From the NCBI GenBank assembly GCA_965220745.1, contig CBDCQT010000011.1:334985-398984 (forward strand): DNA of 64,000 nucleotides, in the 5' to 3' direction. Numbering within the stretch: position 1 is the first letter of the stretch; each line of letters opens with the position of its first letter. A program made the translations under genes and the position numbers. Source of the stretch: Alphaproteobacteria bacterium. GTDB taxonomy: Bacteria; Pseudomonadota; Alphaproteobacteria; UBA828. Of the stretch, positions 1 to 1,815 are shown piece by piece. The notes under the pieces are model-generated. The model ran no database searches. It saw only the letters and a program-made list of their open reading frames with translations, and was not told where the DNA came from.

Positions 1-586
1 GGGCAATGAGATGAGCCGACACTGCCTGGCGCAGGGTCTCGATCAACTGCCCGAAGCTCTCGGGATCGCGATAGGCCCATCCCTTGACCGTGGCAAAGTC
101 CCGGCTCCGCCCGCCACCAACCATGTAGGTCGCGAGCGTCCACGGCGCCCCGGCAAAACCCAGCACCGTCGCCCCAGCCGGCGCCGCAGCCACGACCCGC
201 TCCATCACCTCGTAGACAGGCGCAAGATGCCGCCTTTGGCGTTCCACATCGAATTCGGGCAGGGACCCACCCTCCGGAATCGCTTTGAGCCTGGGTCCCT
301 CACCCTCCTTGAACCAGAGCTTGACGCCGAGCGCCTCGGCAACCACCAGGATGTCCGAGAACAGGATAATCCCGTCGAGGGGGAAACGACGCACGGGCTG
401 AAGAGTCGCCTCCGCCGCCAAAACCGGGTCGTAGCAGAGATCGAGGAAGGACCCCGCCTTCGTCCGCAACGCTCGGTACTCGGGGAGGTAGCGCCCCGCC
501 TGGCGCATCAGCCAGAGCGGCGGCGGATGCTGTGCCTTCCCTCGAAGCGCCGCGAGAAGCGGCTTGATATCTGCGTCCACGGTCAC
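1..586 (-). CDS. hemE: uroporphyrinogen decarboxylase, N-terminal part (3-prime end runs off window start)
   Basis: Hand translation of the minus strand gives VTVDADIKPLLAALRGKAQHPPPLWLMRQAGRYLPEYRALRTKAGSFLDLCYDP...ILFSDILVV. LWLMRQAGRYLPEYR is the HemE N-terminal signature. GTG start at 586 with an in-frame TAG upstream at 619-617. Absent from the ORF track because there is no stop in the window. Confidence 0.9.
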   Translation of the reverse strand, partial: MTVDADIKPLLAALRGKAQHPPPLWLMRQAGRYLPEYRALRTKAGSFLDLCYDPVLAAEATLQPVRRFPLDGIILFSDILVVAEALGVKLWFKEGEGPRLKAIPEGGSLPEFDVERQRRHLAPVYEVMERVVAAAPAGATVLGFAGAPWTLATYMVGGGRSRDFATVKGWAYRDPESFGQLIETLRQAVSAHLIA

Positions 587-999
587 GAGTCGGTTCTTGT
601 CCCCGGCTTCGTCAGACTATCTTCATTAAATGAGTCTTAGTAAGGGTGGATGATGATGTTGGTGCGGATGAGGGGATTGTGGCGTTCATCCCATGGGTCG
701 GGTGAATGATCACATGGGTCGTGCCACAGACGGACTCAACGTGAAGAAGCGATGAATGACCAACGCGGCGGCGTGTTTCAACGGTTGTGGGGAAACTAGG
801 ATAGTGTGGAAGGGCACCTGGCAGCACCGGTCATGAGAGTGTTATCCCCGTTTTGACGGTTTTGTGACAGGGATGGTCGGATAAGCTGAGGATAGATTGG
901 GGGTTGTCTGGCTGGGTGCCGTTGCCCACGGATTCCCCACATGAAGGCGCTGAGAAGTCGTGCCGGTGCGGGCGCAGCGCGGAGGGTCGTAGCGGGTTC
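587..999. other. candidate chromosomal replication origin (oriC) / divergent promoter region
   Basis: 413-bp non-coding, AT-richer gap between divergent hemE and the PDRP-maf-aroE-coaE-dnaQ block. Contains several 6-7/9 DnaA-box-like 9-mers with an orientation switch and three GANTC sites. The hemE-adjacent position is known for alphaproteobacterial origins. Confidence 0.5.
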
Positions 1000-1815
1000 A
1001 TGCGAAGGTTTCATCTGCATCTGGTCTCGGACGCTACCGGCGAGACCTGCATCACCATAGCGCGCGCGGCGGCAGCGCAATTCCAGGGCGTGGATGCGGT
1101 TGAGCACCTGTGGTCGCTGGTGCGCACCGAGAGTCAGCTGCGGCAAGTTCTCGCCCACGTCGAGGCGGAGCCCGGCGTGGTGATGTTCACCCTCGTCGAC
1201 CCGCAGCTTCAAGCCCTTCTGCACGAGGAGTGCCGGCGTATCGAAGTTCCGTGCATCCCACTGCTCGACACGGCGATCACGGCGTTGAGCGGCTTCCTCG
1301 GCATCGAGAGCCGTAATCAGCCGGGCAGCCAACACGTCATGGACGAAGCCTATCTCAAGCGCATCGAGGCGATGAACTACGCGCTCGCCCACGACGACGG
1401 GCACTCGCCGACATCGCTGCGGGAGGCTGATATCGTGCTTGTCGGCGTATCGCGGACCTCGAAGACCCCCACCTGCTTCTACCTCGCCAATCGCGGTCTC
1501 AAGGCGGCCAACGTGCCGGTGGTGCCGGGTAGTCCGTTGCCGCCGGAGCTTGCAGCACCGCAGGGTGCGCTGGTGGTTGGCCTCACCTGTCACCCAGAGC
1601 AGCTGATCGATATCCGGCGAAGCCGCATGCGCATGATCGGCGATATCGGCGAGACCGCTTACGTAGACCCCCTTCAGGTCGAAGAGGAGGTGCGGCAGGC
1701 GCGGCGCCTGTACGCAGAGGCGGGATGGCCGGTGATCGACGTGACCCACCGCTCGATCGAAGAGACAGCCGCCGCGATTCTTCAGCTATACGACCGCCGC
1801 GCCCTCTCCCCCTGA
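1000..1815 (+). CDS. pyruvate, phosphate dikinase regulatory protein (DUF299 kinase/phosphorylase)
   Basis: MRRFHLHLVSDATGET N-terminus and P-loop VLVGVSRTSKTPT in the 904..1815 ORF. ATG at 1000 chosen because family members begin at this motif. Confidence 0.85.
   Translation: MRRFHLHLVSDATGETCITIARAAAAQFQGVDAVEHLWSLVRTESQLRQVLAHVEAEPGVVMFTLVDPQLQALLHEECRRIEVPCIPLLDTAITALSGFLGIESRNQPGSQHVMDEAYLKRIEAMNYALAHDDGHSPTSLREADIVLVGVSRTSKTPTCFYLANRGLKAANVPVVPGSPLPPELAAPQGALVVGLTCHPEQLIDIRRSRMRMIGDIGETAYVDPLQVEEEVRQARRLYAEAGWPVIDVTHRSIEETAAAILQLYDRRALSP

Follow-up and report, generated by a model that had tools for sequence, protein, structure and literature searches.

A candidate hemE-linked chromosomal replication origin in an alphaproteobacterial lineage represented by metagenome-assembled genomes

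Here we describe a 413-bp intergenic region that very probably (roughly 85%) constitutes the chromosomal replication origin, oriC, of an alphaproteobacterium, and that is of the hemE-linked type, for which Cori of Caulobacter was the first to be mapped. The window, i.e., the whole stretch of 64,000 nucleotides that was analysed, covers C11:334985-398984 in a metagenome-assembled genome (MAG) of 13 contigs, 4.82 Mb and 67% GC, with a completeness of 99.96%. The lineage is represented by MAGs exclusively, and some related MAGs carry the label Rhodospirillales. The same origin reading had been advanced in an initial annotation of this DNA, and it is supported by the presence of the Cori boundary genes, by a parS site and parAB genes 9 kb away, by the conservation of box positions among relatives, and by a location roughly opposite dif in seven relatives.

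The locus is organized as follows.

2-586, minus strand: 5′ part of hemE (uroporphyrinogen decarboxylase), the left boundary gene; TIGR01464, E = 2.4e-62 for the 195 aa that the window includes
587-999, no strand: the whole intergenic gap of 413 bp, proposed oriC; non-coding, between divergent hemE and PDRP flanks
1000-1815, plus strand: PDRP / DUF299 / COG1806 gene, the right boundary; NF003742, 332 bits against a cut-off of 225

Full-length hemE reaches 374.9 bits with TIGR01464, above the cut-off, and PDRP is followed on the plus strand by maf, aroE, coaE and dnaQ (NCBIfam identification). The GC content of the gap is 0.56 overall, as compared with about 0.70 in its flanks and 0.67 in the genome; locally, it varies between 0.53 and 0.60 across the gap and between 0.65 and 0.70 in the flanks. 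The gene identifications and the GC profile thus agree with the earlier description of a non-coding, AT-richer gap between divergent hemE and the PDRP-maf-aroE-coaE-dnaQ block. No open reading frame with a family match was found in 587-999, an Rfam scan of 400-1200 returned no RNA family, and a simple scan of the gap for sigma-70 promoters and terminators gave no matches. The dnaA gene is present in a single copy on the same contig (C11:660999-662348), 325 kb from the gap.

This arrangement is widely kept. Among 80 alphaproteobacterial loci recovered with the PDRP protein, which come from this lineage and from records named Acetobacteraceae, Sphingomonadaceae and others, 79 have a divergent hemE 301-550 bp upstream of PDRP. 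Furthermore, when 7-mer enrichment was evaluated without bias over the 80 gaps, the top matches were pieces of the DnaA box: TCCACAG in 44 gaps (3.3 expected), GTTATCC in 38 (3.0), ATCCACA in 45 (4.6), TTATCCC in 47 (4.4) and TATCCCC in 42 (5.4). TTGTCCC and TGTCCCC are also enriched. At closer range, an alignment of 15 sequences was built from the present gap and those of 14 relatives whose PDRP identity goes from 100% down to 71%. In this alignment, seven box positions are better conserved than random 9-mers (0.71 vs 0.59, P = 0.015).

The sites in question, scored against the DnaA box consensus TTATCCACA with a threshold of at most two mismatches or recognized by their type and conservation, are listed below.

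596-604, plus strand: TTGTCCCCG, a weak DnaA-box-like site of the ATCCCC/GTCCCC type (W-box-like) adjoining the hemE start; conserved in relatives
645-653, minus strand: TCATCCACC, a box-like 9-mer of the sequence inside a 3-base-period tract
663-671, minus strand: TCATCCGCA, a weak DnaA-box-like site; 2 mismatches, poor conservation (0.49)
672-680, minus strand: ACAATCCCC, a conserved ATCCCC-type site adjoining the proposed unwinding element; from the genus alignment
684-692, plus strand: a better-conserved ATCCCC-type site
786-794, minus strand: TTCCCCACA, a weak DnaA-box-like site; 2 mismatches, poor conservation (0.53)
805-813, minus strand: CCTTCCACA, a very weak box matching at 6/9 positions; G(T/G)GGGA core conserved (0.75)
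842-850, plus strand: TTATCCCCG, the best-conserved DnaA-box-like site of the gap; from the alignment
874-895, minus strand: a conserved block TGATCnGATAAGCTGGGGATAAG, which here reads CTATCCTCAGCTTATCCGACCA on the minus strand and comprises box CTATCCTCA (887-895) and a TTATCCGAC half-match
933-941, plus strand: TTCCCCACA, a weak DnaA-box-like site on the PDRP side; 2 mismatches, conservation 0.78

The best-conserved 9-mers of the gap largely fall on these sites: GTTATCCCC (841-849), which comes first with 0.90 identity, GATAAGCTG (880-888, 0.87), CTTCATTAA (621-629), TGTCCCCGG (598-606, 0.87 over the 14 relatives) and GGGGATTGT (672-680, 0.87 in the genus alignment). Moreover, TTATCCCC[AG] occupies matching positions in many of the 80 gaps, the block 874-895 is also present in the relative G017, and at the position of 933-941 the relatives have TTTTCCACA, TTGTCCACA or TTCTCCACA. 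The ATCCCC-type sites are reminiscent of the weak W-boxes of Caulobacter (PMC6393856; PMC13643167). All the 9-mers of the initial annotation are present, with exact coordinates for 786-794, 805-813, 842-850 and 933-941; two others had been placed one base away, TCATCCACC at 644-652 instead of 645-653 and TCATCCGCA at 664-672 instead of 663-671. That list was nevertheless incomplete, as 887-895 and the better-conserved ATCCCC-type sites at 596-604, 672-680 and 684-692 were absent from it, and the clean switch of orientation that it proposed is contradicted by the minus-strand CTATCCTCA, which lies between two plus-strand boxes.

Every box is weak, none in the gap having one mismatch or less to TTATCCACA. 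As a group, they exceed what chance would give: the gap contains six 9-mers with at most two mismatches, whereas 5000 shuffles average 0.88 (P = 0.0002), the genome as a whole has 0.415 per 450 bp, and 33 other low-GC gaps have a mean of 0.94 per 413 bp (maximum 3.7). The cluster ranks about fourth genome-wide and is the sole window with more than three boxes inside C11:150-420 kb.

Related gaps carry a second enriched motif, which gives a possible key to where the DNA would open. The 7-mer search over the 80 gaps also brought out CTACTAC/CTACAAC, i.e., arrays of CTA or CAA triplets, which are the complement of the 3′-GAT-5′ DnaA-trio (PMC8235120). Arrays of three or more such triplets, running toward hemE, occur in 18 of the 80 gaps, whereas 0.5 would be expected from the flanks, beginning in every case at 60-115 bp from the start of hemE. 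Toward hemE, these gaps present in order a DnaA box, a short GC-rich spacer, the (CTA/CAA)n trio array and an AT-rich tract; in distant gaps, the box that precedes the array is ATCCCC or ATCCACA. Two elements of the present gap can be set against this order.

611-644, no strand: AT-rich conserved tract, proposed DNA-unwinding element; from AT content, conservation and position
645-662, minus strand: 3-base-period tract CAA CAT CAT CAT CCA CC, putative degenerate counterpart of a DnaA-trio array

Here the order is boxes at 663-680, 3-base-period tract at 645-662 and AT-rich DNA at 611-644. The AT maximum of the gap (67.5%) falls in the 40-bp window 618-657, CAGACTATCTTCATTAAAT within the 611-644 tract is conserved throughout the genus, and the tract matches by position the AT-rich DNA that follows the trio arrays of distant gaps. 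The 3-base-period tract starts 75 bp from the hemE start, contains CAACATCATCAT on the minus strand at 651-662 and keeps an identity of 0.80-0.85 within the genus. Its triplets (CAA CAT CAT CAT, later TTA CTA) do not fit the stringent 3′-GAT-5′ consensus (PMC8235120). Judged from this comparison, the layout appears to be retained in the present genome, with triplets that would have drifted from the consensus. Since the succession of box, trio-like and AT-rich elements is kept there, unwinding would take place at about 611-662, on the hemE side. The tract 611-644 probably carries the hemE promoter as well; in Caulobacter, transcription from a hemE promoter has been reported as required for replication (PMC6393856).

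Further evidence comes from chromosome organization. A search allowing up to three mismatches gave a single parS in the genome, a perfect TGTTTCACGTGAAACA located 9.2 kb to the left of the gap (C11:326415), and the 20 kb on that side contain mnmE, mnmG (gidA), rsmG (gidB), parA, parB, rho, the dCTP deaminase gene dcd, hemH and hemE. At the other pole, a unique dif-like site, AATTCGCATAAGATATATTATGGTAAAT, is found at C13:522538-522565. There, both the GC skew and the orientation-corrected skew reach a maximum, and GGGNAGGG switches orientation, from 12:0 to 0:11; the terminus being cleanly found at dif, the skew method therefore works in this genome. Each of the 11 relatives examined has one copy, and no more, of the dif core CATAAGATATATTATG. 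Seven relatives with complete or near-complete chromosomes have dif on the same long contig as the hemE gap, and the shorter arm between the two represents a fraction of 0.46 (G004), 0.492 (G018), 0.458 (G016), 0.495 (G017), 0.493 (G014), 0.48 (G012) or 0.421 (G003) of the contig. The gap is thus roughly opposite dif, the place expected of an origin, and this evidence owes nothing to the DnaA boxes. The seven relatives share synteny and are not independent samples; the symmetry was assessed in them, the contigs of the present genome being unordered.

The behavior of the skew near the gap is less clear, and it is here that the best-surviving alternative has to be weighed. On C11, the raw cumulative GC skew has its minimum at about 230-236 kb, some 100 kb left of the gap (335.6 kb). 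Once corrected for gene orientation and codon position, it falls to 220-240 kb, stays flat to about 313 kb and then rises steadily, so that the rise starts about 22 kb left of the gap. The signal amounts to about 100 units per 20 kb, against a standard deviation of 125-165; because noise about equals signal, the position of the switch is defined to no better than some tens of kb. The gap lies at the right edge of the resulting zone, which is compatible with an origin and does not confirm it. The raw cumulative GC, GC3 and T-A skews are weak and noisy on all contigs, a principal component analysis of signed 8-mer counts recovered gene orientation and not replication direction, and the skew of GGGNAGGG-like octamers, clear near dif, is flat on C11. 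In the single-contig relative G004, no V-shaped skew appears in the 400 kb around the homologous gap. GC skew has been described as imprecise for origins of Alphaproteobacteria (PMC1914354). For the initial annotation, which had named a skew minimum elsewhere on the replicon as evidence against its reading, the outcome is ambiguous: a minimum about 100 kb to the left, a rise about 22 kb to the left, and a weak and noisy signal. Apart from this, a second skew reversal is observed on C13 near 640 kb, which may reflect a misassembly or a large inversion.

The gap could accordingly be viewed as a divergent promoter and regulatory region, partly regulated by DnaA, with the true origin elsewhere in the ori-proximal part of the chromosome, for example in C11:220-313 kb. 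The raw skew minimum and a corrected rise that begins at about 313 kb and not at 335.6 kb would agree with it, as would the weakness of every box and the need, in any case, for two promoters in the gap. Nevertheless, the noise is 125-165 per 20-kb bin and the signal about 100, so that a displacement of 22-100 kb falls within the error, and no other window of C11:150-420 kb has more than three boxes. Moreover, the boundary genes, together with parS and parAB, correspond to those of the mapped Cori locus, and the trio arrays of related gaps point to unwinding, beyond what promoters would require. Altogether, this alternative appears unlikely.

Even less likely is that the gap serves to titrate or recycle DnaA, as a datA- or DARS-like site, and does not initiate. 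It could be evoked by a cluster of DnaA-box-like sites that has no dnaA gene nearby. datA and DARS have a compact core of high-affinity boxes plus IHF and no unwinding element, whereas the present gap has an AT-rich tract, its weak boxes are distributed along about 350 bp, and a search of both its strands gave no IHF consensus (WATCAN5WTR or WATCAANNNNTTR). The flanks are also those of a mapped origin, and a far better candidate for such a role exists at C13:861456-861535, an array of perfect DnaA boxes that is stronger than the gap. This array was in turn discarded as an origin: it shows no skew switch, spans only about 80 bp and shares its contig with dif, from which it is 339 kb distant. 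A cluster of boxes upstream of dnaB, at C7:161.4 kb, was discarded as well and is likely a DnaA-regulated promoter. Finally, the idea that these 9-mers resemble boxes by chance, simply because the intergenic region is AT-richer, which could draw on their 2-3 mismatches each and on the 4448 such sites of the genome, is effectively refuted by the shuffles and the other low-GC gaps, by the positions kept in relatives and by the enrichment of the motif class across the 80 gaps.

The origin reading remains by far the most probable, and with it comes the question of the regulatory layer that accompanies Cori. One further motif of the gap is relevant to it.

626-640, plus strand: TTAA-N7-TTAG with an embedded GAGTC (632-636), CtrA-like motif; read from the sequence

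The motif had been correctly located in the initial annotation. It takes the perfect form TTAA-N7-TTAA in five close relatives (L041, L042, L043, L044 and L047), and in the present gap neither the full TTAA-N7-TTAA nor TTWW-N7-TTWW was found. The three GANTC sites proposed at 632, 733 and 931 exist, and the count has to be raised to four, with another at 587, so that the 413 bp contain four, the genome average being 2.18 per kb; GANTC recurs at the 632 spot in many gaps, and 632 is the only one of these sites that is positionally conserved. The regulatory meaning given to these motifs is not supported. No CtrA ortholog was found in the genome, the best match reaching 162 bits against a model cut-off of 350, which Caulobacter CtrA passes; this match is CopR-like and fits the heavy-metal response regulator family better (261 bits). 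Likewise, no close CcrM ortholog was found among the two best PF01555 methyltransferases (N6/N4), which are RsrI-like (116 and 83 bits, vs 51 bits to CcrM, 6PBD); two further matches have 510 and 247 aa. GcrA is present. As orthologs of neither CtrA nor CcrM were found, there is no support here for reading TTAA-N7-TTAG and the GANTC sites as CtrA and CcrM sites, and control by these two regulators is not expected.

A tentative and rather doubtful extension would be that this lineage has a Cori-type origin devoid of the CtrA/CcrM layer, which would have kept a TTAA-N7-TTAA-like plus GANTC motif in its unwinding element and in which an ancestral single-strand DnaA-trio array would have drifted into a double-strand DnaA-box reading (TCATCATCATCCACC). 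If this were true, the motif would be bound by a factor other than CtrA, or would be intrinsic to the unwinding element or to the hemE promoter, and the change from trio to box would alter the opening of the origin by DnaA.

As to the functioning of the origin itself, we infer DnaA binding, the site of unwinding and firing from the elements described. DnaA-ATP would bind individually weak ATCCACA- and ATCCCC-type sites over about 350 bp, at 596-604, 663-680, 786-813, 842-850, 874-895 and 933-941. From the boxes at 663-680, a DnaA oligomer would spread across the 3-base-period tract 645-662 and would melt the adjacent AT-rich DNA at about 611-644, near the hemE start, where the helicase would be loaded. 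The transcripts of hemE and of the PDRP operon would diverge from start points inside the gap.

This is very probably an ordinary hemE-linked oriC, whose place and design are already known for Alphaproteobacteria, and the understanding of how such origins work is unchanged. Its value lies in providing a well-supported origin annotation, together with dif and parS sites, for an uncultured lineage known from MAGs only; oriC, dif and parS could be used to order contigs, to define replichores and to estimate growth rates from metagenomic peak-to-trough coverage. In addition, the hemE/DUF299 layout, with a module of box, trio array and AT-rich tract facing hemE, is kept across many alphaproteobacterial families, even in a genome where neither CtrA nor CcrM was detectable.

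The closest known system is Cori of Caulobacter crescentus, experimentally mapped between hemE and the DUF299/COG1806 gene (PMC6393856; PMC1914354; Taylor et al. 2011, cited in PMC6393856 and PMC13643167). The PDRP gene is the counterpart of Caulobacter CC0001 and of Rickettsia RP001, a DUF299 flank of Cori being described in PMC6393856 and PMC1914354, and hemE-linked origins have been predicted for Rickettsia (hemE/COG1806), Wolbachia, Ehrlichia and Anaplasma (Ioannidis et al. 2007, PMC1914354). The placing of oriC beside hemE in Caulobacter (mapped) and in Rickettsia (predicted) by the initial annotation is in accordance with the literature (PMC6393856, PMC1914354). The present gap shares with Cori its hemE/DUF299 flanks, a size of about 400 bp, weak DnaA sites including a TCCCC(A)-type class comparable to the W-boxes (PMC6393856), an AT-rich tract on the hemE side, GANTC sites, the transcription of both flanking genes from inside, and parS/parAB a few kb away. 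Cori differs by its five CtrA sites, its IHF site and the methylation of its GANTC sites by CcrM, while the present gap presents neither a full TTAA-N7-TTAA nor an IHF consensus, no CtrA or CcrM ortholog was detected in the MAG, and dnaA is 325 kb away.

The predicted origins of PMC1914354 are very AT-rich, and TTATNCACA boxes were used to score them together with CtrA and IHF sites, whereas the present one belongs to a 67% GC genome and has degenerate boxes only and no accessory sites. CtrA and IHF sites, however, vary between species among those predicted origins (PMC1914354). In the terms used there, the gap presents (a) the boundary genes, (b) the binding sites in part, (c) uniqueness and (d) AT content; as in those origins, the intergenic region exceeds 300 bp and is conserved among close relatives. 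Finally, with respect to the basal unwinding system (Richardson et al. 2016, cited in PMC13643167; PMC8235120), the difference is that the triplets found here depart from the stringent trio and that their tract partly reads as a double-strand DnaA-box-like 9-mer; the order and the spacing of the elements are the same.

Beyond the window, the source genome (a 13-contig MAG of a UBA828 alphaproteobacterium) carries the following sites:

C13:522538-522565, dif, single copy, AATTCGCATAAGATATATTATGGTAAAT
C13:861456-861535, DnaA-box array of 6-7 head-to-tail boxes in a gap of some 80 bp between two genes
C7:161349-161526, cluster of DnaA-box-like sites, GAGGATATCGTGGATATT...TTGTCCACA...CTGTGGAAAAC
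C11:326415-326430, perfect parS, TGTTTCACGTGAAACA, where mnmG meets rsmG, with parA-parB downstream

The GC-skew maximum and the orientation flip of GGGNAGGG both fall at dif, whose 16-bp core is present in exactly one copy per genome in all 11 relatives examined. A second reversal of GC skew and octamer orientation is seen on C13 at about 620-660 kb, only about 120 kb beyond dif, and the polarity over the remaining 640-1081 kb of C13 matches that of the contig's first half. This second reversal suggests that the MAG contig contains a misjoin, or else that a large segment was recently inverted or translocated.

The array on C13 is the strongest DnaA-box cluster of the whole genome and has been kept in six close relatives. 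Its sequence is GTGGAGAAGCTGTCGATAAGCTGTGGATAACGTTGTGAATTTCCTGTGGATAACCGTTGGAAAACCTGTGAGCGG, in which the boxes are spaced by 11-12 bp and two of them are perfect (TGTGGATAA), and it is flanked on one side by an M20 peptidase/ArgE-like gene and on the other by a gene for a FadB-like enoyl-CoA hydratase/3-hydroxyacyl-CoA dehydrogenase. The array lies 339 kb from dif in the source genome and 287 kb in the relative G011. It could be a site of DnaA titration or recycling (datA/DARS-like), or a DnaA-repressed promoter. As for the cluster on C7, the replicative helicase gene dnaB is found directly downstream, and the site is likely a DnaA-regulated promoter.

In G011, the 4.17-Mb contig C1, which is labelled chromosome 1, carries the hemE gap, but the sole dif core lies on a separate contig, C3, together with the DnaA-box array. 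This “genome” amounts to 7.9 Mb with 9% contamination, and may correspond to two genomes or to a split chromosome.

The parS on C11 is the only perfect one in the source genome. GcrA is present, and neither a CtrA ortholog nor a close CcrM ortholog was detected in this MAG, which is 99.96% complete; this is an unusual set for an alphaproteobacterium.

In the hemE/DUF299 gaps of many other alphaproteobacterial MAGs, a DnaA box is followed by a GC spacer, a CTACTACAACTACTAC array of DnaA-trio-type triplets and an AT-rich tract, the latter often holding GANTC, with 60-115 bp between the trio array and the hemE start. This layout is textbook-like in gaps L058, L066, L061, L059, L060, L057, L063, L080, L091 and others.
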